Shown here one piece after another: positions 37,222 to 48,821 of a stretch of DNA of 64,000 nucleotides. Source of the DNA: an uncultured Bacillota bacterium (lineage in GTDB: Bacteria > Bacillota_I > Bacilli_A > RFN20 > CAG-288). The first letter of the stretch is position 1; each line of letters starts with the position of its first letter. The notes below the pieces were generated by a model, which saw nothing but the letters and a program-made list of their open reading frames with translations, was not told where the DNA came from and did no database searches. The translations under genes and the position numbers were made by a program. The stretch spans positions 216-64,215 of the forward strand of contig CASFYT010000018.1 of assembly GCA_949299015.1 (NCBI GenBank), in the 5' to 3' direction.

Positions 37222-37818
37222 ATGAGAGGCATAAGACAAGAAACAAAATCTTATCCTGGTAAGAGTTTAAGAGAAGCAATTTTAAATGCCATCTGCCATG
37301 CTGATTATAGTATGCCATCGAACATTAAAATAGAATTTTATGTCGATAGAGTCGAAATAACTAATCCTGGCGGAATTTATAGATATAATATTGATGACAT
37401 TTTATTAGGAATTCAGTCCTTTAGAAATCCAAAATTGATAGCTGTGTTGCATAGGCTCGGATTCATAGAAAATTATGGAACGGGAATCAAGAGAATTAGA
37501 GAAGCTTATCCTAATTATGATATTAGAAACTTTTTGATAAATCGTCTTCAATGGTTTAGGGGCGTCTTACCGGATTTGAATTATGAAAAAGCTTCTTTGG
37601 AGGACAATGTCCCTCAAAATGTCCCTCAAAATGATTTAAGTAAGATAATTGACGCCATAAAAAAGAATGAAAGAATAACAAGAGAAGAATTAGCTGCTAT
37701 CATTGGGAAGAGCGTAAAGACCGTAGCGCGAATTATAAAAGAATCTGACTCAATTAAATTTGTAGGTTCATCAAAAACCGGTCATTGGGAAATCATAGAA
37801 GACAAGAAAGAAAATTAA
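37222..37818 (+). pseudogene. N-terminally truncated putative regulator (RecG-like HATPase_c_4 domain plus wHTH)
   Basis: The 198-aa fragment shows AILNAICHADYS...EITNPGG...RNPKLIAVLHRLGFIENYGTGIKRI and a C-terminal wHTH (ITREELAAIIGKSVKTVARIIKE). As I recall, full-length relatives are ~450-500 aa with an N-terminal AlbA_2/Schlafen domain, which is missing here. Confidence 0.6.
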
Positions 37819-38304: not shown

Positions 38305-38387
38305 GAAATTTCCCCCGATTTCCCTCGCTTTCCCACATTTCCTTTTTTGAGCGGATGTTTTTTGTAGGCTATTGGCGAACCGAGAGA
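38305..38387 (+). promoter_or_regulatory. Conserved upstream block of cassette A
   Basis: GAAATTTCCCCCGATTTCCCTCGCTTTCC (38305-33) and TTTTTGTAGGCTATTGGCGAACCGAGAGA (38358-87) closely match 42816-43 and 42859-88 upstream of cassette B. Confidence 0.55.
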
Positions 38388-38435: not shown

Positions 38436-38531
38436 ATGAAGAAGTTTGTTTTCAGGGAAGGATTCCGGGAGGGTATTGCTCGCGGAACCATGGCCGAGCT
38501 AACGCATCCAGGGAAGATGGGGGTAAAATGA
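38436..38531 (+). pseudogene. Collapsed DUF4417-like gene (31 codons)
   Basis: The product MKKFVFREGFREGIARGTMAELTHPGKMGVK* keeps the start (compare MKKTFFDDGFQDY...) and the tail (compare ...HSQEKGVK*) of the 223-aa gene at 42956-43627. The stop / 1 nt / ATG junction to the next gene is also the same. Confidence 0.6.
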
Positions 38532-38532
38532 T

Positions 38533-38910
38533 ATGGGCGTCACGTTGAGAAGGAATTCCTTGCCCGTAAAGTCGAACCCCTTTTACCATTACAATCCAAG
38601 AAGTGGATACTTCGGGACTTATGTTTCGGGGAACAAGATTAAGACGAGGCTAATCTATGCCGAAGATCCTGAAGAAGAAGCGAGGGAATTGTTCCGCCAA
38701 TTCGTTGTCGGAACGAAAATCGATGAGAGTGTTCCGGGGAAAAAGTGGAGTGCCGTGCTTGAGGATTGCTCTGTCATCACTTTGCGGATTAGGCATCCTA
38801 CCCCGGAACACGAACCGGCCGTCATGATCAGCGTGAAGAAAAGCGATGACCCGGCTGGGATTAGGACGCAGAAGATACATTTCGTAAAGAAAGGAGAAGA
38901 CAAGAAATGA
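38533..38910 (+). CDS. Small basic protein A2 (uncharacterised), paralogue of 43629-44045
   Basis: The 125-aa product is about 55-60% identical to B2 by hand alignment. Shared blocks are NP.Y.Y.P..GYFG, EAR.LF, PGK.W, ITLRI.HP.P.H.PAVMISVKK and QKIHFVK. Confidence 0.75.
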   Translation: MGVTLRRNSLPVKSNPFYHYNPRSGYFGTYVSGNKIKTRLIYAEDPEEEARELFRQFVVGTKIDESVPGKKWSAVLEDCSVITLRIRHPTPEHEPAVMISVKKSDDPAGIRTQKIHFVKKGEDKK

Positions 38911-39545
38911 AAGATCTGAATCTATCCATATCCCAGGAGGGAATCCGACTGTTGAAGGAAATGATCGGTCAAGAACTTGTTTCCGTGCGATATGCAAAAT
39001 TCGGTTCCGGAAACATCGTTTTCCAGAAGGTGGAACTTACGACTCCGCATGGAAAATATCTCATCGACAATGATGTTGGTTGGTTCGAGGATTTCTGTTC
39101 GGGTCCCGACGATCTTCCTTGCTTGAGTTTCAAAAAGCTTCCGGATGGTAAGAATCCGTTTGCGCATCGAAGCTCCGAAGAGATCATCACGGATGAAATT
39201 GGAGAAAAGATTACCGATATCTTGATCCTCCAGGATGAGGCCAATGTCTTTGATGGCGAAAAATATCTGCAGAAAATGGAATCCTCGGAAGGAATCATTC
39301 TTGTCATGGACAAAGCCCAATATGGATTCTTCAAGGAGAACATGTGGCTGGACGAAGAACTTGTCCTCTGCAAAGGCAGAAATGCCATGGATGGCCTCGA
39401 GAGCCTCAAGGACCATTTCGACATCTTCGGATATCCCTTCCGTGCGAAGTGCAAGAGGGTCGTCCTCTCCCTGAAAGACGGAACGGAAAGAGAGGTCGAA
39501 AGGGCAGAAGAAATCGGCGAAAGACCCGAAGAGGAGATCGGATGA
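38907..39545 (+). CDS. Acidic protein A3 (uncharacterised, immunity-like), paralogue of 44042-44674
   Basis: The 212-aa ORF shares an ATGA overlap with A2 and is roughly half identical to B3. Shared blocks are MKDL.LSIS, SSEGII, GFFK.NMWLDEE, HFDIFG.PFRAKC and AEEIGE. Confidence 0.75.
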   Translation: MKDLNLSISQEGIRLLKEMIGQELVSVRYAKFGSGNIVFQKVELTTPHGKYLIDNDVGWFEDFCSGPDDLPCLSFKKLPDGKNPFAHRSSEEIITDEIGEKITDILILQDEANVFDGEKYLQKMESSEGIILVMDKAQYGFFKENMWLDEELVLCKGRNAMDGLESLKDHFDIFGYPFRAKCKRVVLSLKDGTEREVERAEEIGERPEEEIG

Positions 39546-39887: not shown

Positions 39888-41529
39888 TTATTCTGCCGTT
39901 GACCATATGCGCCCAAACAGAGTGTTTTCTCCGTTTCCTAATCGAACAATTTGATGTTGTGTGATGATCTTTTGAACTTCATTTTCAAAAACGTTGATTC
40001 TGTCTATTGCAATGAAAATTTGTTTCCTTGAGTTATTGTAAATGCGGAACAAGCCTTCGACTGGCTCGTCCCACATGTTTTTGAAAAGCATCGAATCATC
40101 AATGACAAAAGGAAGCTTTGTCAATTCAAGGACAGCCATGTCAAATAGAAGAAGACCCTTATATTCCGTGCCCGCACCTTTGTCATTTGGAGTTTTATAA
40201 GTGTAATGGGAAAAGTCGGAAAGGGTCATCGTTGGCGCAAATCTTTTCTCCTTGTAAATGCTGTCATTCAATTCGGCAAGCTTTTCATTCAATGATTTTT
40301 CTATGCTTGAAAGGACATAGGAATATTCTTCGCCAAGCTGAAGCTTGTCATTTGCGATCTTGTTATCCAATTCTTTTTTCTTTTCGTACATAGCCACTTG
40401 GTTTTCCAGCTTTTTGATTTGATCGTTTTTGGCTTGGAACGCTTCGAGAAAGGCCTTAGGGATTCGAGGCGACACATTGTTTTTGAGGAGGGCATCGTTG
40501 ATTTCCCGGAGTCTTTTATTCACTTCGGAAATTTTGTCATTCAGATTTGCTTTTTGTTGATTGACCTCTTCATTGACGTTGATGCTCAAATTCCTTTGGA
40601 ATTCATTGATTTCCGTTAGTGATTTGAGATTGACATTTGGAAAAATGGAAACAAGTTTTTGCATATCGTCTTCCGTCATGAGAAGATTATCTCCGGTCAT
40701 GGATTCCAGACTGTTGAGACGAATCGAAAGCATCTTTCTTTTTCTCATCAGACAAATCTGCTCGGATTTGAGGTCGATGTCCGCTTGCGATAGTCTTTCG
40801 TCTGCAACCAAAGAGGCTTGGTCTTGACTTTTGACCAGTGAATCGATTTCTTGCCGGATTCGGGCAATTTCCTCTTTGGCAGCTTTGACATCGGAGGCTG
40901 TCTTGATCGGCGAATAGACTAGCCATATTTATTTGCGTCCTTCCACGCCTTTTTCGTCTTTTCAGCTTGCTCGATTTTCGCTAGAATTTCGTTCAGTAGT
41001 GTTCTCTTCCCGAAAAGATCAATGAGAACTTTAATTCCGTTTTCGTCTTTTGCGTCGTTGCCATAAGTTTTGAGCGGTTTCTCCACGTCGTAATTTCCCT
41101 TGCCATAGATCCTGGCGAAAGTATTGACCAAGCCTCTGAAGGAAGATACGACAGATGAGCCGAAATATTGTTCTCGAAGAAAGGAATTCAAGCAATCGAT
41201 GGACTTTTTTCCCCGATTGGAGTATAGGAAGAATCGCATTCATGATAGTGATTCGGATCGGAAGTCTCTCTAGAAAAATAATAATCGCGAGAATCGAATT
41301 CAAAAGTGAAGTAGATGGTATGGTCGCCAACATTTTTGATTATGTCGGAGTCTTTATTGGTATAGTCACTGCCTCCAAAACAAAAATCCACCATCATGAG
41401 AAGGCTGGACTTTCCGATGGAGTTCAAGGCATCATCCGTACCAACGACACAATTAAGGCCAAGCATGAACCGTATGGTCTTGTCCTTGATTTTGTTTGAG
41501 AATTTATCGCATTTGATTTCTTTCAACAT
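39888..41529 (-). pseudogene. ABC-3C-type (DUF2326-like) ABC/SMC-like ATPase, frameshifted into three pieces
   Basis: The N-terminal piece (41188-41529) starts MLKEIKCDKF...GLNCVVGTDDALNSIGKSSLL and carries Walker A. A middle piece (40919-41239) and a C-terminal piece (39888-~40928) carry a coiled coil, GAGTEYKG, LPFVIDDS (Walker B) and KQIFIAIDR. The frame breaks at the T6C4 run 41205-14 and at 40919-31. Confidence 0.7.
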
Positions 41530-41925
41530 TTTCTGATCCTTCCTTTTTCTGACATCTCTATTCGCCCAATGGCATACAAGGCACTTAATGCTTCATAAAA
41601 TGCCTTTGAATCCATTTTCTTGGATACTTTGCGATACAAATCAGCTGGTGCCGACTCAAATCCCAGTGAGTTTAAAATCTCCGTCATCTGATAAATGATA
41701 GTGGTCTTGTATCGATTGACCTTATTTGGAAATCTCATGGAAGACCTCACAGCTTTGAACGAAATAGGAGACGATGATTTCAGCGACGGATTTGTCACAA
41801 CAGCCGGCGATGGAGACTTTGTCGACAAGGAGATTGAAAATATCCTCCTTGTTTTGGGATTCCTTCTCTGCAAACAAGAAGGCCGTCCTTATCGTGGAAG
41901 AGAGAAGTTCGTATGAACGTCGCTC
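41523..41925 (-). pseudogene. ABC-3C middle-component-like gene, frameshifted
   Basis: The C-terminal frame encodes a wHTH-like ...MTEILNSLGFESAPADLYRKVSKKMDSKAFYEALSALYAIGRIEMSEKGRI. The N-terminal part (SYELLSSTIRTAFLFAEKESQ...EVFHEISK*) is in another frame that stops at 41722-24. The gene end overlaps the ATPase start by 7 nt. Confidence 0.55.
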
Positions 41926-42810
41926 TTAACCATCAAGTTCCCCGAACAACTTGTAGAGATTCGGGAAATAATGGGCGACATTCGATTTAATTTTGTTGTA
42001 GAGAAACAACTCATTTTCTTTATTAACTTTTTGATTTATTTTTAGGCTTTTCATATTCAAAACCACATCAGACGTTTTTGATTCTTTTAAAAGGATTTCA
42101 ATCGCAGACATCAGTTTTCCATCAACTGAAATGGTTCCGGCTTGCTTTCGAAGATTGGCTTTCTTTTCCAGTCTCTCTTTGGCATGGATCAAATCTTTGT
42201 CAAGCTTTCCAATCGTATAAAGATTTGCGCAATCTTTGCAAAGGCCAATCATTTTGTATGGCCTGCCAGTATCGGAGTCAAAGGTATCAAGTTTAGTGGC
42301 AACTATGGCGTTTTCGTCTGCGCTATTTAAACTAAGGCTTTTCCCGCAACAGGGGCAAATTCCATCATCTTCCTCGAAAAGTTGCGCCCGCAGCGTGGCG
42401 GTTCCTTGAAGCTGGGCGCTTCGAAACGTTGCGGAACTATCGAAGATGATTTTTTTGAACTGGTCTGCGACTTTTTGAGCAAAGTTCTCTTTGGTCACAT
42501 TTCCAACGTAACAGCTGAACGTTTCAACGAAATTCGCAAGTGAATCGCCTTGAATGGTATCTTCCAAAACCTTCACTAGGCCTGAAGTGTCCAAAACGGG
42601 GTATATCCTTTCCGCTATCCTGGATATCGAACTGATGCCACTGAAAAGATTCCTTTTCTGTTTTGGAGTCATCTTTGCTATGTCTTGTCCGATTTCACTG
42701 CCCGCATCACTTATCGAGTTCAACACAATCAAATCGAAAACTTCTGCCTTGCTTTTGCAACCGCTCTTCAAGAATGGCTCGAGCATCATGCACAATTCAC
42801 TGAAGGTCAT
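41926..42810 (-). CDS. First gene of the ABC-3C-like operon (effector/CTD position), function unknown
   Basis: This intact 294-aa ORF contains a CPCCGK...(x37)...CKDC zinc-ribbon-like pair. It is assigned to the system by gene order only. Confidence 0.55.
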   Translation of the reverse strand: MTFSELCMMLEPFLKSGCKSKAEVFDLIVLNSISDAGSEIGQDIAKMTPKQKRNLFSGISSISRIAERIYPVLDTSGLVKVLEDTIQGDSLANFVETFSCYVGNVTKENFAQKVADQFKKIIFDSSATFRSAQLQGTATLRAQLFEEDDGICPCCGKSLSLNSADENAIVATKLDTFDSDTGRPYKMIGLCKDCANLYTIGKLDKDLIHAKERLEKKANLRKQAGTISVDGKLMSAIEILLKESKTSDVVLNMKSLKINQKVNKENELFLYNKIKSNVAHYFPNLYKLFGELDG

Positions 42811-42815
42811 GTATC

Positions 42816-42888
42816 GAAATTTCCCTCGATTTCCCTCGTTTCCTTATCCGCCAGTGTGCTTTTTGTAATCTATTGGCGAGTTGAGACA
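42816..42888 (+). promoter_or_regulatory. Conserved upstream block of cassette B (divergent intergenic region)
   Basis: GAAATTTCCCTCGATTTCCCTCGTTTCC (42816-43) contains a tandem ATTTCCCYCG. CTTTTTGTAATCTATTGGCGAGTTGAGACA follows at 42859-88. Both blocks are shared with cassette A. Confidence 0.55.
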
Positions 42889-42955
42889 AGTTTCGATGCA
42901 ATACGAATATTGTATCAAAAATGTTCGCTCACTCTCATTACAAGGAGAAACAACC

Positions 42956-43627
42956 ATGAAAAAAACTTTTTTTGATGACGGTTTCCAAGACTACCTTGTC
43001 GACGGGGCACGGTTTGAAGGAAGGGACGGGATTCCAAGACTGCTCAACACGACCGGAGAGATCCCGGCGACCCTCATTCCGTTTGACAAAGCCAAGACCT
43101 CAAAAACAACGCATGGCTACCTTCATTTCTATATCCATGATCGTCAATACGGAAAAATCCTTACGGACACGAGGAAGTACGATGAATTGATTTCAAGGTT
43201 TGATGGAATTATCACTCCAGATCCCACGATTGTCATCGGCATGCCACATTGCATTCAGGCGGCGGCCACATACATGAGTCGGGCAATCGGGTATTACGAA
43301 CAATGTAGGGGAATATCGGTGATTCCCAATGTTCGGTGGGGAGACCCGTCAACATTCGATTTCTGCTTCCTTGGCATTCCGAAACATTCGGTCGTTTCGA
43401 TTGGCACGCACGGCGCCATTGCCAGGGACAGGGCCACGGGGAACCTTCTCCGGAATTGCTTCAGGGATGGACTTGGAAGGATGTTGGACGTCATCGAGCC
43501 GACGGATGTCCTTGTTTATGGCTATATGCCGGATGACGTTTTTCGTGATTTTTTTGGACGGACCAGGTTTCACAGGTATCCGTCGGAGTTCGAGAGGACC
43601 CATTCGCAAGAGAAAGGAGTAAAATGA
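42956..43627 (+). CDS. DUF4417-like protein B1 (function unknown)
   Basis: The product is 223 aa from the ATG that follows an AGGAG ribosome-binding site. The motif pattern YLHFYIHDRQY, GIITPDPTIVIGMP, YMSRAIGYY.Q..GISVIPNVRWGD and SIGTHG matches my recollection of Pfam DUF4417. Confidence 0.7.
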   Translation: MKKTFFDDGFQDYLVDGARFEGRDGIPRLLNTTGEIPATLIPFDKAKTSKTTHGYLHFYIHDRQYGKILTDTRKYDELISRFDGIITPDPTIVIGMPHCIQAAATYMSRAIGYYEQCRGISVIPNVRWGDPSTFDFCFLGIPKHSVVSIGTHGAIARDRATGNLLRNCFRDGLGRMLDVIEPTDVLVYGYMPDDVFRDFFGRTRFHRYPSEFERTHSQEKGVK

Positions 43628-43628
43628 G

Positions 43629-44045
43629 ATGGGAGTATCTGTAAAATCGTCTTTGCGACAACATTCCGCAACGCTAAGGGAAAACTCGTTGCTGGTGAAG
43701 GCCAATCCACTCTATAAGTATGATCCAAAGACAGGGTATTTCGGAGAACACAGAAAGGGAACGAGTATCGATGTCCGCCTTGTGTATGTGAATAGCAATC
43801 ATAAGCAAGAAGCTCGGATTCTATTCAACCAACTTGTCAGGGGAGTTTCCGAAATAACGGAAGACAAGCCAGGCAAGAGGTGGCACGCAAATTTGCAGGA
43901 TGGCTCCATAATAACTCTACGTATCGACCATCCAGATCCCAGCCATGCCCCCGCTGTCATGATAAGCGTGAAAAAAAACAACGACTCCGCTGGAATAGTA
44001 GATCAGAAAATTCATTTCGTAAAGGAAGGAGAAACCCGGAAATGA
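43629..44045 (+). CDS. Small basic protein B2 (uncharacterised, toxin-like by context)
   Basis: The 138-aa ORF starts 1 nt after the B1 stop. See A2 for the shared blocks. Confidence 0.75.
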   Translation: MGVSVKSSLRQHSATLRENSLLVKANPLYKYDPKTGYFGEHRKGTSIDVRLVYVNSNHKQEARILFNQLVRGVSEITEDKPGKRWHANLQDGSIITLRIDHPDPSHAPAVMISVKKNNDSAGIVDQKIHFVKEGETRK

Positions 44046-44674
44046 AAGACTTGGACTTATCGATCTCTGAAAAGGGAAAAGAAGATTTGAAAGCAATCAT
44101 CGGGCAAGAGAACATCTCATTCGTTTACCGCCGGGAAATGACGGACAACGAGGCTGTTTACAAGATTCAAATCAAGACCGAGAAAGGCAACTACCTTCTC
44201 ACAAACAGTCTCGACTGGTTTGATAACTGCTTTGCTGGCGGTGACTGGCTTCCGCATTTCGATATCGAAGCCTTGAGAGATGACGTGAATCCGTTTGAGA
44301 ATTCAAAAGAATCGAAACTCATTGTCATCACACTCGATGAGAAAGTCGTCGATATCCTGTTGCTAAGGGACACTGCGAATGTATTCAAGGGAGACAAGCA
44401 CTGGCAGAACATCGACTCGTCGGAAGGGATTATCTTTGTTACCGAAAAGCGCCAGTTGGGTTTCTTCAAGGATAACATGTGGCTTGATGAAGAGATTAAC
44501 ATCCACGAGGGAAAGAACGTGGTCGAGATGGCGGAAGGGCTGAAGAAACATTTCGACATCTTCGGCTGGCCGTTCCGTGCGAAATGCGAGAGGTTTCTGG
44601 TTTCTTTGAGCGATGGCGACGAGAAAAAACTTGATACAGCAGAGGAAATCGGTGAAAAGATCGAAGAGGAATAG
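44042..44674 (+). CDS. Acidic protein B3 (uncharacterised, immunity-like by context)
   Basis: The product is 210 aa from the ATG at 44042, which shares an ATGA overlap with B2. The tracked ORF 43880-44674 is an in-frame 5' extension that overlaps B2. Confidence 0.75.
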   Translation: MKDLDLSISEKGKEDLKAIIGQENISFVYRREMTDNEAVYKIQIKTEKGNYLLTNSLDWFDNCFAGGDWLPHFDIEALRDDVNPFENSKESKLIVITLDEKVVDILLLRDTANVFKGDKHWQNIDSSEGIIFVTEKRQLGFFKDNMWLDEEINIHEGKNVVEMAEGLKKHFDIFGWPFRAKCERFLVSLSDGDEKKLDTAEEIGEKIEEE

Positions 44675-44966: not shown

Positions 44967-46274
44967 ATGGAAATGATTGGAAAGACACGCTATATTCCGC
45001 GTATTGCGGACAGTGAACTGCAAGACCGCCTCGAGGCTTCCGGTGCGGTCTTGATCGTCGGCCCCAAATGGTGTGGAAAGACGACGCTCGCCTCTCATCA
45101 GGCGAGGAGTGTCCTGTCCCTTCAGGATCCTGATCGCCGTTCCTCCTATATCTCCACGGCCTCCGTGAAGCCGTCCTTGCTCCTCAAGGGGGACAAGCCA
45201 AGGCTTCTCGATGAATGGCAGACGATTCCCGTGCTTTGGGATGCCGTACGGCATGATGTCGACCGAAGCGGGCTTTTGGGGCAATACATCCTGACAGGAT
45301 CAAATGCCGTCGACGAGAAGCAGATCCTGCATTCCGGAATCGGACGGATCGCACGGATGAAACTCTATCCGATGAGCCTATTCGAGACGGGCGAATCCAA
45401 TGGCGCCCTTTCCTTGGACAGACTCTTTTGCGATCCGAACTATGACATCGACGGAATGGTTTCTTCCCTGAGCGTGGAAGACCTGCTTTTCGCCACTTGC
45501 CGAGGAGGATGGCCTTCTTCGCTCTTCATGACTTCCCGGAAGGCGCAACTGCTCGTTCCGAAGGACTATCTGAATGGTGTCTGCGAAACGGAAATCTCGA
45601 CAGTCGATGGCGTCCGCCGAGATCCGGCCAAGACAAAGGCGCTTCTTTCCTCCTATGCGAGAAACGTATCGACGATGGTGAAAAAGACGACCCTTTTGCA
45701 GGACATCAACACCCAGGACACGGGGATGTCCATCGGTACCCTCGATAGCTATCTCTCGGCGCTGGAACGTCTCTTTGTCATCGAGGATGTCCCGGCTTGG
45801 TCACCGGCAATCCGCTCGGCTTCCTCGATGCAGAGTCGTCACAAGAGGGAATTCGTCGATCCATCGATTGGAATCGCTGCCCTTGGTCTCGCGCCCGAGT
45901 ATTTTGAGACCGATCTCAAGACCTTCGGCTTCTTCTTCGAGAACCTCTGCGCCCGGGATTTGCGCGTGTATTCGCAGAAAACGGGAGGACACCTGTCCTA
46001 CTATCATGACCGGTATGGCCTGGAAGCGGATTTCGTCCTACACCGGGACGATGGCCGCTATGCCCTTGTCGAATGCAAACTGGGGAGTGCGGAAATCGAG
46101 GAGGGCGCAAGACATCTTTTGGAGATCCGTCGCCTCTTGGAAGAGAAGATCGCAAGCGAAAAGCAATGCCCGTTGAAAGTGCCCGATCTCATGATCGTCC
46201 TGACCGGAGGGGAGATGGCTTATCGCCGTCCCGATGGCGTCGATGTCATCCCCATCGGTTGCTTGAGGGATTAG
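44967..46274 (+). CDS. AAA+ ATPase (AAA_14) with a DUF4143 / PD-(D/E)xK-like C-terminal domain
   Basis: The 435-aa product has Walker A (VGPKWCGKTT). The C-terminal block GLEADFVLHRDDGRYALVECKLG fits a D...E.K nuclease-fold motif. Confidence 0.85.
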   Translation: MEMIGKTRYIPRIADSELQDRLEASGAVLIVGPKWCGKTTLASHQARSVLSLQDPDRRSSYISTASVKPSLLLKGDKPRLLDEWQTIPVLWDAVRHDVDRSGLLGQYILTGSNAVDEKQILHSGIGRIARMKLYPMSLFETGESNGALSLDRLFCDPNYDIDGMVSSLSVEDLLFATCRGGWPSSLFMTSRKAQLLVPKDYLNGVCETEISTVDGVRRDPAKTKALLSSYARNVSTMVKKTTLLQDINTQDTGMSIGTLDSYLSALERLFVIEDVPAWSPAIRSASSMQSRHKREFVDPSIGIAALGLAPEYFETDLKTFGFFFENLCARDLRVYSQKTGGHLSYYHDRYGLEADFVLHRDDGRYALVECKLGSAEIEEGARHLLEIRRLLEEKIASEKQCPLKVPDLMIVLTGGEMAYRRPDGVDVIPIGCLRD

Positions 46275-46398: not shown

Positions 46399-46680
46399 TC
46401 AATCGTTTGCAAGTCTTCTGTTGAGGTCTTCGTAGTCGATGCATTCGGGGTTCCAGTTAAGTTCATCGATGGCCTTGACCGCACTCAACGGAGCATCGTG
46501 ATCAATCTCTTCTCCGGCCTCTTCTTGCTGGGTCAAAGGAACTTCAACCTCGCTTTCCAAAAAATCGATGAGGTCATATACATTTTCGCTTGTTACCGGA
46601 AGTATGGTTCTCAAGGCTTCGACAGATAAAAAACGTTTGATAAATTCAATAGACTCATCGCTGACTATTATTTTTTTCAT
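46399..46680 (-). CDS. Small acidic protein, putative immunity/antitoxin partner 2
   Basis: The 93-aa ORF overlaps the upstream toxin-like ORF by 26 nt. It is homologous to 47239-47502 (FIK, YDL, GE.ID, DEL, ID.EDL..RL). Confidence 0.7.
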   Translation of the reverse strand: MKKIIVSDESIEFIKRFLSVEALRTILPVTSENVYDLIDFLESEVEVPLTQQEEAGEEIDHDAPLSAVKAIDELNWNPECIDYEDLNRRLAND

Positions 46681-46936
46681 ATGCTTTCATGTCCTTTCTC
46701 AATTCTTTGTCGTGGAATCGTCTCACCGAGCATACGTTTTTGTTGAACGGATTGATCACGCTCAGGATTTTGTTCAAGCTGAAACGCTTGTAAGCCGGTC
46801 TTCCGAAGATGTCCCTTTTGGTCTTCGTTCTAAGAAGTGACCTCTTTCTGAAATTATACCCCAATTGCCTTTTGTTATATCTCTTTTCTGTATGTCGTGG
46901 GTGGCATTCCTGGTGACATATCCCGCTTAGATGCAC
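46655..46936 (-). CDS. DUF4258-like toxin 2 (start uncertain, possibly degraded)
   Basis: The C-terminal ~70 aa (LGYNFRKR...INPFNKNV...) aligns with toxin 1. The GTG start at 46936 is a guess. An alternative frame upstream (46875-47075) also carries an H..DH-like motif. Confidence 0.45.
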   Translation of the reverse strand: MHLSGICHQECHPRHTEKRYNKRQLGYNFRKRSLLRTKTKRDIFGRPAYKRFSLNKILSVINPFNKNVCSVRRFHDKELRKDMKAYEKNNSQR

Positions 46937-47187
46937 CCACGCTGTTCTGAACCAGACAAACCTTTTCTGCAACGTGGTCAAGCGGATGTTCCGGGTCCAC
47001 CTCCGAGTCCATCCGCGGAACGTCCGGAAGTGGCTGGACGAGCTTCGTCGAGAGAAGATGAATCCATGACGACAAGGCATACGAAAATTACTTCTTCAAG
47101 GTCATCGAAAGAATATTCCTTTCTGGAAAAAGTCTTAGATGAAGGGAAGTTCGAAGGAGGTAGAAACACGATTATTGTTCCATCTCT

Positions 47188-47220
47188 TCAAGAAAAAGAA
47201 AAGGACTCGCTTCGGAGCCC
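47188..47220 (-). terminator. Candidate terminator after toxin/immunity pair 1
   Basis: On the - strand GGGCTC-cgaagc-GAGTCC is followed by TTTTCTTTTTC. The stem has one mismatch. Confidence 0.45.
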
Positions 47221-47238
47221 TCTCTGCTTCAGCATTTC

Positions 47239-47502
47239 TTATTTGAGCCGATTGCTTAGATCTTCCAAGTCGATTTCGTTGTCTCTCAGCTCATCTCCCG
47301 CCTTGGTGGCGTCCTCGAGAAGCTTCATGTCGATAGGCTCGCCATTCTCCTGCTTGTTTACCAGGAAATATTCGAACCTGTGGGCGATATCCACCTCCAA
47401 ATCGTACAAGGAGTCCTCTGTCAAAGGCATGAATTTGGAGATCTCGTCCTTTGAATAATGCTCCTTGATGAAGCCGACTAGGAAGTCACTTGCCTTGACC
47501 AT
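47239..47502 (-). CDS. Small acidic protein, putative immunity/antitoxin partner 1
   Basis: The 87-aa ORF has a GGAG ribosome-binding site and overlaps the toxin-like ORF by 17 nt. Confidence 0.7.
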   Translation of the reverse strand: MVKASDFLVGFIKEHYSKDEISKFMPLTEDSLYDLEVDIAHRFEYFLVNKQENGEPIDMKLLEDATKAGDELRDNEIDLEDLSNRLK

Positions 47503-47809
47503 GCTTGTGCATCTCCTTTCTTTTCGCTTTCTTCAGAGTCCTTTCCCCATAGGGATAAACGGTTATGACCCTCTTTCGGAACGGATTGATGGCGGCGAAT
47601 ATCCTGTTCCAACCGAACCTCCCGTAGGAAGGCTCGTTGCCGTAGTTCATCGTCACCGAGGTCTTGAATCTTGGCTTGTGCCGAAGATTGTAACCAAGCT
47701 CCCCCTTCGACACGTTCCTCTCCTTCATCCTCTTCACGGCATGATCCGTGACGTGGTAGCCGCTTGTATTATACGGCTTCTTCGGAATGATTTTCTTTCT
47801 CATCCCCAT
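47486..47809 (-). CDS. DUF4258-like small basic toxin 1
   Basis: The 107-aa product is very basic. The N-terminal YHVTDHAVKRMKERNVSKGEL matches the H...HA..R...R pattern I associate with DUF4258. Confidence 0.65.
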   Translation of the reverse strand: MGMRKKIIPKKPYNTSGYHVTDHAVKRMKERNVSKGELGYNLRHKPRFKTSVTMNYGNEPSYGRFGWNRIFAAINPFRKRVITVYPYGERTLKKAKRKEMHKHGQGK

Positions 47810-47825
47810 CGCCTTTCTGGCCTTC

Positions 47826-48044
47826 TCATGTTTGCCAAAGCAAGTATAAACCCTGTTCTTTCCACTGCTTTATAGAAAAACTCGAAAAAACTCTTGACAG
47901 AGTTTCGACGATTCCGTTCTCTTCACTATTTGCTATTGCTTCGTAGTCCAGACTGTATCGTTTCAAAATGGCATAAGAAACAATTGTCGCTACAGTCTCG
48001 TCCATTCTTTTTCCGTGGTCTTGCCAAAGTGTCGACGTCCACAT
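47826..48044 (-). CDS. Small hypothetical ORF
   Basis: This 72-aa ORF ends 16 nt before toxin 1. It has no recognisable motif and may not be expressed. Confidence 0.25.
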   Translation of the reverse strand: MWTSTLWQDHGKRMDETVATIVSYAILKRYSLDYEAIANSEENGIVETLSRVFSSFSIKQWKEQGLYLLWQT

Positions 48045-48287
48045 GTCTTGATGGACGCTGTGGCGTCAAGGGGAGTGGGCTGGCGTAGAAAATGGTGATG
48101 AAAGAACATCCAATTCCTTTACGTGCAAAACGCATTCGAATCGAATCGGGTCATGAATCGCTTTTGGCAATCGAGAAAATCTGCCTTTCTCTTCAAGGGA
48201 CAAAAGCTGTTTTTTATACAAGAGACGGATCCGGTTCAAATGGCGGTTTGCGAATTGGCGAACCGATCCAGGCTATCCGCCAAGCGG

Positions 48288-48821
48288 CTAGGCTTTTTCG
48301 AAAGTGACGACATCGAAATGGAGCTCGAAAGGGGTGCCGCCGTACGGACCGAAAGTCAGCTTCACTTCGAGGATCTCCTTGAGCCACCTTTCGGCGTTGG
48401 CGATATCCTCCTGGACTTCGTTCCAGGCTTTCGACAAGTCGACGTTTTGCGAATAGACGCGTTCGGTCAAATAACGATTGCGACGGGCCGTGCCGATATA
48501 GACCGAGGTTGAGGGCATGCCCGGGGCATCGACGCTTTTCAGCGCACGGGCGATGACCGGAACGGTGACCACGAAAACGCCGTCTTCTCTTTGCGATACC
48601 CTCGCCTTGTTCGGGTCATGATTGACGTAAATGAAATCGTCCTTCAATTGGGACTTAAAGAAGTTGACCGCCCGCAATCGGACTCTCTTGATCTTGTCGT
48701 AAGGCCGATATTGGTATTTCACTTTCTCCATTGATTCTTTGAGCCCGAACCAGCAATCGAAAATCTCCGATACTTTGTTTTGGATGTCTCCGGTGAACAT
48801 CAGCAAGGATGGCATACTCAT
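48288..48821 (-). CDS. Hypothetical protein at the island edge
   Basis: This 177-aa ORF has no confidently recognisable motif. Confidence 0.55.
   Translation of the reverse strand: MSMPSLLMFTGDIQNKVSEIFDCWFGLKESMEKVKYQYRPYDKIKRVRLRAVNFFKSQLKDDFIYVNHDPNKARVSQREDGVFVVTVPVIARALKSVDAPGMPSTSVYIGTARRNRYLTERVYSQNVDLSKAWNEVQEDIANAERWLKEILEVKLTFGPYGGTPFELHFDVVTFEKA

Follow-up and report, generated by a model that had tools for sequence, protein, structure and literature searches.

A putative three-gene conflict module centred on DUF4417, intact in an uncultured Bacillota genome and widespread in gut and rumen bacteria

We analysed a 64,000-nt stretch of DNA from an uncultured Bacillota bacterium (contig CASFYT010000018.1, positions 216 to 64,215; the window hereafter), in which three plus-strand genes, B1, B2 and B3, form a compact cassette. 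B1 (42956..43627; ATG at 42956, TGA at 43625-43627) codes for a DUF4417 protein of 223 aa, which we regard as the constant partner in the cassette and which has a predicted enzyme-like (beta/alpha) repeat fold; an AGGAGA ribosome-binding site precedes the gene at 42944-42949. B2 (43629..44045) encodes a basic protein of 138 aa from a new family, a predicted toxin domain behind a short N-terminal MG leader. B3 (44042..44674) encodes an acidic protein of 210 aa, the predicted cognate immunity protein or antitoxin. The B1 stop codon is separated from the B2 ATG by 1 nt, the B2 stop and the B3 ATG overlap as ATGA (44042-44045), and the three proteins are probably made from one translationally coupled transcript. 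A first-pass annotation of this DNA had described three coupled, intact genes with a small, basic, beta-rich second product and an acidic third one. All of this held: coordinates and junctions were as described, the computed isoelectric points (pI) are 9.7 for B2 and 4.7 for B3, and the AlphaFold2 model of B2 (pLDDT 85) comprises two helices and a sheet of five to six strands. The cassette indeed lies in an AT-rich island (36.6-44.9 kb) with a GC content of 0.42 against 0.60 in the flank.

The same annotation had made its idea of a conflict system depend on whether the three families co-occur in other genomes. We collected relatives by a pattern scan with one genome per species (57 loci), a metagenome scan (80 more loci) and contigs reached through B2 or B3 homologues, and scored them with hidden Markov models (HMMs) from our own alignments. 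The 57 species-level loci belong to Lachnospiraceae, Erysipelotrichales-type Bacilli, other Clostridia, Sphaerochaetaceae, Treponema, Eggerthellaceae and others. In virtually all loci with sufficient room, across gut and rumen Firmicutes, spirochaetes and Eggerthellaceae, we find B1, B2 and B3 tightly packed in the same order. A full-length B2 was followed by a B3 match in 129 cases, by a B3-sized open reading frame (ORF) too divergent for the HMM in 9, by the contig end in 10 and by no partner in 5; these last five comprise two ORF-start artefacts (the window included), two truncated B3 genes and one gene near a contig end. Ten further loci showed a degraded B2 beside an intact B3. More than 130 independent loci share this gene order, so the conservation of the trio goes far beyond chance, and the co-occurrence on which the first idea hung is a fact of these genomes.

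We also checked whether the trio belongs to a phage module or a named system. The genes downstream of the cassette in relatives encode Ffh, enolase, MFS transporters and similar proteins, so the cassette does not sit in a prophage structural module; genes of about 420 aa in this position, which we had considered as terminases of phage packaging, proved to be these same housekeeping genes. Around the window cassette and its relatives there were no phage structural genes, and the flanks are either housekeeping or integrase and restriction-modification regions, so the trio is no structural or replication module of a phage, a finding that would have refuted the first idea. On contigs classed as viral, the trio and an XRE-M78 pair stood beside large serine recombinases, type I restriction-modification genes and a Sak recombinase. 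The claim that no named system has this gene set also stood. PADLOC-DB v2, NCBIfam and Pfam recognised only DUF4417 (B1), and PHROGs only DUF4417-type families for B1; PADLOC-DB v2 had no match for B1, B2 or B3 and one chance-level match (E 0.013) for B2', the product of a second copy of B2 described below. B2 and B3 appear in no family database that we queried, and the system appears to be undescribed.

The assignment of B1 to Pfam DUF4417, made from its motif pattern in the first-pass annotation, was borne out by the match to PF14386 (E 2.8e-40, 138.2 bits against a gathering cut-off of 28.9, residues 25-199); B1 also matched the DUF4417-type PHROGs phrog_8680 and phrog_940. A full-text literature search, supplementary tables not included, returned no function assigned to DUF4417, and a profile search found no sequence relative of B1 in the PDB. 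The AlphaFold2 model of B1 (pLDDT 91) shows a repeated beta-alpha fold. D62, D89, R109, N125, R127, W128 and D130 are invariant or nearly so, H152 is nearly invariant, and in the model the conserved polar residues seem to sit just behind the predicted strands. Performing Foldseek searches, we obtained weak TIM-barrel matches (TM < 0.5), among which TGT and phage 'queuine tRNA-ribosyltransferase' models recur. The TGT/DpdA-type matches ranged over TMq 0.37-0.49 and E 1.7e-3 to 0.1, and other TIM barrels scored equally well. In the viral library, the best match after DUF4417 proteins themselves was a queuine tRNA-ribosyltransferase (E 1.7e-3, TMq 0.48), and bacterial TGT reached a match probability of up to 0.82.

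These matches raise the question of whether the trio is a toxin system at all. It might instead have come from phages and work as a nucleic-acid modification or anti-defence module of three subunits, in which DUF4417 would catalyse a TGT/DpdA-like base exchange and B2 and B3 would be accessory. Besides the fold matches, this fits the frequent fusion of phage DUF4417 to ParB-type domains (10.1101/2025.10.10.680097; phrog_940 as well) and the presence of an RNA 2'-phosphotransferase gene in some DUF4417 cassettes. However, aligning the B1 family against E. coli Tgt by hhalign gave a probability of 1.1%, that is, no sequence-profile relationship, and we dropped DUF4417 as a TGT/DpdA relative and kept the likeness as a weak fold-level lead. 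Moreover, B2 occupies the toxin position of MuF proteins and is swapped elsewhere for a structurally characterised CdiA-CT/CdiI-type pair, and B3 has no conserved residues. We regard a modification module as scarcely credible. Because the fold matches are weak and hhalign finds nothing, we call B1 an enzyme-like protein and assign it no chemistry.

By an exhaustive profile search, the B2 family comprises 572 clusters at 50% identity, nearly all of them stand-alone proteins of 120-150 aa. B2 had no match in Pfam (31 members scanned), PADLOC, PHROGs, NCBIfam or the PDB, and a search of the plasmid collection for B2 was empty. The family keeps an 'MG' start in at least 90% of its proteins, and GYFG, D91, R98 and QKIHF are invariant. 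Foldseek gave the B2 model no significant neighbour in the PDB (best E 0.2, TM < 0.3), and the barnase, EndoU, colicin E5/D and RelE folds were not among the top PDB matches. With all matches at E >=0.2 and TM < 0.3, a BECR or E2-like fold was set aside. A CdiA-CT-like reading of the motif DGS.I..R..S....PAV.I....QKIHF fared no better: neither profile searching of the PDB nor scanning 31 members with Pfam gave a match, and we dropped it. B2 would be a growth-arresting toxin; its domain is basic, of the alpha+beta kind, and has Arg, Lys, His, Gln and Asp among its invariant residues. Judged by its basic charge, by the conservation of Arg, Lys, His and Gln, and by the leaning of sister cassettes towards RNases and RNA repair, it is most plausibly a metal-independent nuclease acting on RNA; as there is no significant structural neighbour, this idea draws on residue chemistry and analogy.

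What B2 might do is also indicated by its few longer relatives, in which the B2 domain lies at the extreme C-terminus. In a 430-aa protein (L070), a Phage_Mu_F domain (34.7 bits, above the gathering score) is followed by the B2 domain at residues 318-429 and then by a B3 homologue; a second protein, P0148, likewise carries Phage_Mu_F upstream of the B2 domain. Behind DUF4417 there are B2 forms of about 200 aa, whose N-terminal extension is homologous to the pre-toxin linker of the MuF-B2 proteins (E 8e-9). From this homology we conclude that B2-linker modules have been exchanged between MuF and DUF4417 contexts. We had at first taken the linker of the long B2 forms to be 'PT-TG-like'; Pfam gave no PT-TG match, and we kept only its homology to the MuF linker.

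The third gene evolves differently. B3 had no relative in Pfam, PADLOC, PHROGs, NCBIfam or the PDB, and the Pfam scan of 44 members detected no helix-turn-helix (HTH), ribbon-helix-helix or other domain. Across the 44 members no residue is invariant except the initiator Met. B3 is acidic in 97% of family members and B2 basic in 70%, with a median pI of 4.6 for B3 and 9.0 for B2. B3 is the fastest-evolving of the three, with a median pairwise identity of 0.28 against 0.49 for B1 and 0.44 for B2. Its rate correlation with B2 is the tightest (r = 0.86), and that of B1 with B2 is r = 0.71. A word-indexed search found B3 homologues to be rare (12 clusters). Orphan pairs or immunity-only copies occur in the second copy of the window and in L016 and L038, and L053 has three B3 paralogues; one ORF that we had taken for a second B3 (L015:281-841) misaligned, had no HMM match and is unrelated. 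The guess that the acidic protein is an immunity protein or antitoxin was strengthened by the B3 homologue after MuF-B2, by the CdiA-CT/CdiI-type pairs of other DUF4417 cassettes and by fast B3 evolution without an invariant residue.

The pairing of a small, basic toxin with an acidic protein, the translational coupling and the mobile-island location would also suit a plain toxin-antitoxin addiction module that stabilises the island, with DUF4417 as a co-transferred passenger, and the orphan B2'-B3' pairs do persist without DUF4417. A passenger can hardly explain why DUF4417 is kept before B2 across phyla and also before unrelated toxin types, or why B1 and B2 co-diversify as their rate correlation indicates. 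In addition, B3 has no DNA-binding domain and the toxin gene comes first. An addiction module is in our opinion highly improbable.

The other DUF4417 cassettes also support a toxin role for the second gene. In L020, a second DUF4417 paralogue is followed by a 168-aa protein matching the CdiA-CT chain of PDB 7M5F (7M5F_C, E 1.3e-19), and then by a 121-aa acidic protein that matches CdiI over its full length (E 0.002). The 7M5F structure is a BECR-fold RNase toxin with its immunity protein (PMC8616854). At another locus, L101 (3602-8715), three cassettes stand in tandem, and each of them has a separate DUF4417 gene. Their second genes encode, respectively, MGAGNSGLYKNTKG joined to a CdiA-CT(7M5F)-type domain (E 3e-11), MGAGNSGKYIGRKG joined to B2, and MGSRGS joined to an unrelated third domain. 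The leader MGAGNSG.Y is thus common to the CdiA-CT-type and B2 genes, and the third start, MGSRGS, is related. From the sharing of B2 and B3 with MuF, the CdiA-CT/CdiI-type swaps and the common leader of L101, we infer that B2 is the toxin, B3 the immunity protein and DUF4417 the constant partner.

We found a second cassette type at five loci (L164 116-6160, L170 1-5655, L169 1949-5563, L163 3306-5348 and L166 127-5624). Here DUF4417 is followed by a basic protein of 165-180 aa starting with MGSG[IVY]S and then by a protein of 125-153 aa, which is acidic in two checked members (152-153 aa) and not in L169 (pI 8.4). The RNA 2'-phosphotransferase gene (PTS_2-RNA, Tpt1/KptA) lies directly after the cassette in L164, L169 and L170 and divergently upstream in L163, and a 1230-aa nSTAND3 NTPase is encoded upstream in L164, L166 and L170.

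In phages, DUF4417 has other company. The collection searched holds it in 491 phage genomes. In Streptococcus and Roseburia phages its gene precedes the terminase genes by one or two positions, and many mycobacteriophages have it as gene 1. Small proteins with an HHGYNH motif follow it in Streptococcus phage A25 (gp22-gp23; L167 2426-3489), in Roseburia phage Jekyll (L168 2968-4273) and in L161 (3968-5025). We considered those of A25 (gp23) and Jekyll as B2 homologues and found no homology. One small protein of Jekyll starts with MGGRGASSG, and another ORF contains NLQFFGGRGG, which may resemble the site at which Prp protease cleaves Firmicute L27 and phage capsid proteins. In those mycobacteriophages, for example Mycobacterium phage Refuge (genes 1-2; L160 438-1939), gene 1 is annotated as a nuclease and overlaps gene 2, an HExxH peptidase; the order echoes the M78-DUF4417 adjacency of bacteria. 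BLAST gave no significant similarity between this peptidase and M78, so that only HExxH is common to them and we rejected the relationship.

The phage and MuF observations are the basis of the main rival to a role in defence of the producer cell. The trio could encode an exported or phage-particle-delivered polymorphic toxin, with DUF4417 as a trafficking or loading factor for the MG leader and B3 protecting kin. B2 and its pre-toxin linker also occur in MuF toxins, which have been proposed to be phage-delivered (Jamet et al. 2017, PMC5576092). The placing of one conserved N-terminal leader on different toxin domains, a co-diversifying DUF4417 kept by each cassette, and a phage DUF4417 one or two genes before the terminase with a small protein behind it would all make sense for a delivered toxin, and B3-only arrays and orphan pairs are what immunity to incoming toxins typically looks like. 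But the majority of cassettes stand alone in chromosomes between housekeeping genes, away from any genes for particles or secretion, we found neither a signal peptide nor a known secretion domain, and DUF4417 looks like an enzyme. Sequenced phages essentially lack B2, and in viral collections the B2 family is limited to a few integrase-proximal contigs. We therefore judge delivery rather unlikely, though it is the alternative to be taken most seriously.

If the cassette acts inside the producer cell, as we prefer, the genes upstream of it become important. In roughly 40-45% of loci, an XRE regulator gene and an ImmA/IrrE-type M78 peptidase gene lie directly upstream on the same strand. Among 150 flanking ORFs, the only recurrent families were HTH_3 (14), Peptidase_M78 (12) and CTD11 (5), the rest being housekeeping or assorted conflict genes. 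In the window, the place of the XRE-M78 pair is taken by a divergent ABC-3C (Lamassu-like) operon on the minus strand (39888..42810), made up of CTD11 (41721-42810), MC7 (41523-41738) and a DUF2326 ABC ATPase (39888-41529), all by Pfam matches and PADLOC LmuB matches. The first-pass annotation had called this operon ABC-3C-like, and we can refine the statement in two respects: its linkage to the trio is specific to the clade closest to the window, whose members lie at different chromosomal sites, and in the window it is broken.

For strain comparison we used same-species contigs (L001-L004, 98% identity, from ENA metagenomes). In the window, the DUF2326 ATPase gene has two 1-bp deletions, at 40922 and 41205, and the CTD11 gene, which encodes 362 aa in other strains, has an in-frame stop at codon 295. 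L001 has a 26-bp deletion in CTD11 instead of this nonsense codon. The operon is intact in L002, L005 and L009. Although the operon has decayed, the trio of the window is intact. In L001 the situation of the trio differs: B2 lacks one base at window position 43971 (L001 13051), within a run of eight A residues (43969-43976), so that the product is 122 aa long, and B3 is intact. The run could allow slippage-driven on/off switching of the putative toxin, or the lesion could be simple decay.

It has to be weighed here whether, in this clade, ABC-3C and the trio make up one system of six genes with the trio as its effector arm. A complex of the ABC ATPase, MC7 and CTD11 would sense foreign DNA, and the CTD11 protein would activate the divergent trio operon through a shared intergenic operator. 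The same divergent arrangement is found in every close relative at different sites (window, L005-8, L009-10, L018, L020-22), with CTD11 remnants in L016, L017 and L023. The CTD11 protein has no recognised effector domain and only a weak HTH_51 match, and intergenic motifs are kept across species. On the other hand, most trios have no ABC-3C operon, that of the window carries two frameshifts and a nonsense codon beside an intact trio, and the linkage could come from co-transfer of one island. We consider a six-gene system improbable.

The region between CTD11 and B1 contains two tandem 10-bp units, ATTTCCCTCG (ATTTCCCYCG; 42819..42838, plus strand). The same-species contigs L001 and L002 have three units, by a 10-bp indel at 42819, and the unit may be an operator or a spacing-variable element of the divergent promoter region. 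Aligning the CTD11-B1 intergenic region of six species, we find two kept motifs, TTTTTGTAATCTATT.GCG and the palindromic AACAATATTGTAyCAAAAA; on the plus strand of the window they correspond to TTTTTGTAATCTATTGGCG (42860-42878) and the palindrome-containing ACGAATATTGTATCAAAAA (about 42903-42921), within 42860..42921. By their conservation and position they are candidate promoter or operator elements of the cassette. Scanning for promoters and terminators gave no usable signal.

A diverged second copy with the same upstream DNA had been reported 4.4 kb away, and part of this report stands. The upstream block is real (38305..38387, plus strand, with 10-bp units at 38308-38327 and the TTTTTGTAGGCTATTGGCG motif); 68 nt are common to both copies at 75% identity (38318-38385 vs 42819-42886), and the proximal palindrome motif is absent from the block of copy 2. 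The pair behind it is real as well (38533..39545, plus strand): B2' (38533-38910, 125 aa) and B3' (38907-39545, 212 aa) overlap by ATGA and are 58% and 47% identical to B2 and B3, respectively. It is not a full trio, as all that stands for its DUF4417 gene is an ORF of 31 codons (38436..38531, plus strand). This ORF keeps an N-terminal MKKFVF..GF, a C-terminal TH..GVK before the stop and the same junction to the next ATG, and we read it as the probable relic of a deleted DUF4417 gene, the similarity being short.

Directly 3' of the trio lies an AAA_14 + DUF4143 gene (44967-46274) that matches the PADLOC candidate system PDC-S01 (E 2.7e-56), in keeping with the AAA+ gene first noted there; AAA_14 + DUF4143 proteins are also encoded near the trio relatives L023, L025 and L065. 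Further on, the minus strand carries small ORFs of 93, 87, 107 and 177 aa (46399-48821), labelled toxin/immunity pairs in the first-pass annotation, in a region that is 90-92% identical in L001. A 198-aa ORF at the island edge (37222-37818) is the C-terminal part of a HATPase_c_4/HTH_24 protein, by annotation of the identical L003 gene, and probably a truncated AlbA_2/Schlafen-type regulator. No Rfam family was detected in 35-50 kb, and no tRNA gene anywhere in the window.

In our interpretation, which we hold to be probable if not secure, the cassette belongs, with all its genes intact, to a widespread and unnamed group of three-gene conflict modules that serve as the effector arm of defence or abortive infection in the producer cell. 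The module would consist of a DUF4417 protein, then a small 'MG' leader with a toxin domain, and then the cognate acidic immunity protein. B3 would neutralise B2 by direct binding. DUF4417 would be the co-diversifying partner needed to deploy the leader-bearing toxin, whether by enzymatic action or by recognising it in the manner of an adaptor. The upstream sensor-type modules vary, and this suggests effector arms of defence circuits: a variable sensor or switch would release the module, namely XRE with ImmA/IrrE in most relatives, a STAND NTPase in others and ABC-3C in the clade of the window. Taken together, and as judged from gene architecture, these features mark a polymorphic toxin system in which the part that stays constant, DUF4417, is encoded by a gene of its own.

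Several observations weigh against this interpretation. Toxicity and neutralisation are both deduced from gene architecture, and nothing of known structure resembles the B2 model significantly. To act, a toxin that is made together with its immunity protein requires an extra trigger, and none was identified. About half of the relatives have no recognisable upstream sensor gene, and in the window the presumed sensor is broken beside an intact trio; the trio must then be independent of ABC-3C, or it is also on its way out. DUF4417 shows the conservation pattern of an enzyme and not of a typical adaptor, with weak fold matches (TM < 0.5; hhalign 1% for Tgt). Fusions of MuF and B2 are rare, as we saw 2 against more than 130 DUF4417-linked genes, and none of the three proteins is covered by a PADLOC model.

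More speculatively, DUF4417 might represent an unrecognised route for deploying toxins or effectors, that is, an enzyme that recognises, and perhaps processes or attaches, proteins with an 'MG-Gly/Ser' leader. In phages, where it is encoded shortly before the terminase genes, its use would plausibly be the loading of an effector into the packaged genome or onto it; chromosomal cassettes would be the output of XRE/ImmA, ABC-3C and STAND sensors, and B2/B3 would be one of several interchangeable warhead-immunity pairs. We offer this as a tentative idea, which may well turn out to be wrong. Regardless of it, DUF4417, which is common in phages and gut bacteria, gains a first functional context in re-assorted leader-bearing toxins and their immunity partners, and the polymorphic-toxin repertoire of the gut and rumen microbiome gains a predicted toxin domain family (~570 clusters) and an immunity family. 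The data also suggest that one type of effector cassette can be driven by three sensor modules as dissimilar as XRE/ImmA, Lamassu-like ABC-3C and STAND NTPases. Should a role in defence be confirmed, the module would be a new, modular kind of anti-phage effector; should delivery be confirmed, it would be a new toxin-trafficking route.

We compared the cassette with known systems. Adaptor-effector-immunity gene triplets of type VI and type VII secretion systems have DUF4123, DUF1795 or Lap/LXG partners. By analogy only, these have the same order of constant partner, variable toxin and immunity gene, and their partner co-diversifies with the toxin. Unlike them, the cassette has no secretion-system genes, and DUF4417 has invariant Asp, Arg and His residues and an enzyme-like (beta/alpha) fold. 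TGT and DpdA come closest to the B1 model in structure, but weakly; the TM values stay below 0.5, hhalign gives 1% against Tgt, and B1, with 223 aa, is less than two-thirds of the size of Tgt (375 aa). From type II toxin-antitoxin systems the cassette differs as a three-gene unit with the toxin first, and in the lack of a DNA-binding domain in B3 (44 members). The ImmR/ImmA-type pair of XRE and ImmA/IrrE is directly upstream in ~40-45% of relatives, whereas the window has no such pair, and control of the trio by the pair is presumed from this position. ABC-3C/Lamassu is the divergent neighbour (CTD11, MC7 and DUF2326) in the clade of the window; yet B1-B3 have no ABC, MC or CTD matches, most trio loci have no ABC-3C operon, and that of the window is pseudogenised.

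The closest comparisons are with polymorphic toxins. The CdiA-CT/CdiI pair of S. marcescens BWH57 (PDB 7M5F) has toxin homologues in the sister cassettes of L020 and L101, and an immunity homologue in L020 also, in the positions of B2 and B3. B2 and B3 themselves have no sequence or fold similarity to it, and the cassette has no CdiA filament and no CdiB transporter. The MuF polymorphic toxins contain the B2 domain and part of the pre-toxin linker as a C-terminal extension, with B3 homologues next to it, and like the cassette they combine a variable toxin domain with a cognate downstream gene. In contrast, the B2 of the window (138 aa) is a stand-alone protein that lacks a MuF domain and follows a DUF4417 gene, the cassette is away from portal and terminase genes, and its immunity protein has ~200 aa against <150 aa in MuF systems. 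With polymorphic toxins in general the cassettes have in common the MG-Gly/Ser leader on B2-type, CdiA-CT-type and other domains, the orphan pairs and the B3 arrays. The original proposal of an undescribed conflict system is thus supported, and no attempt to refute it succeeded; it can be refined in that the system is not unrelated to what is known. We place it within the polymorphic toxin and toxin-antitoxin world, as a new branch of toxin/immunity modules and not as a categorically new kind.

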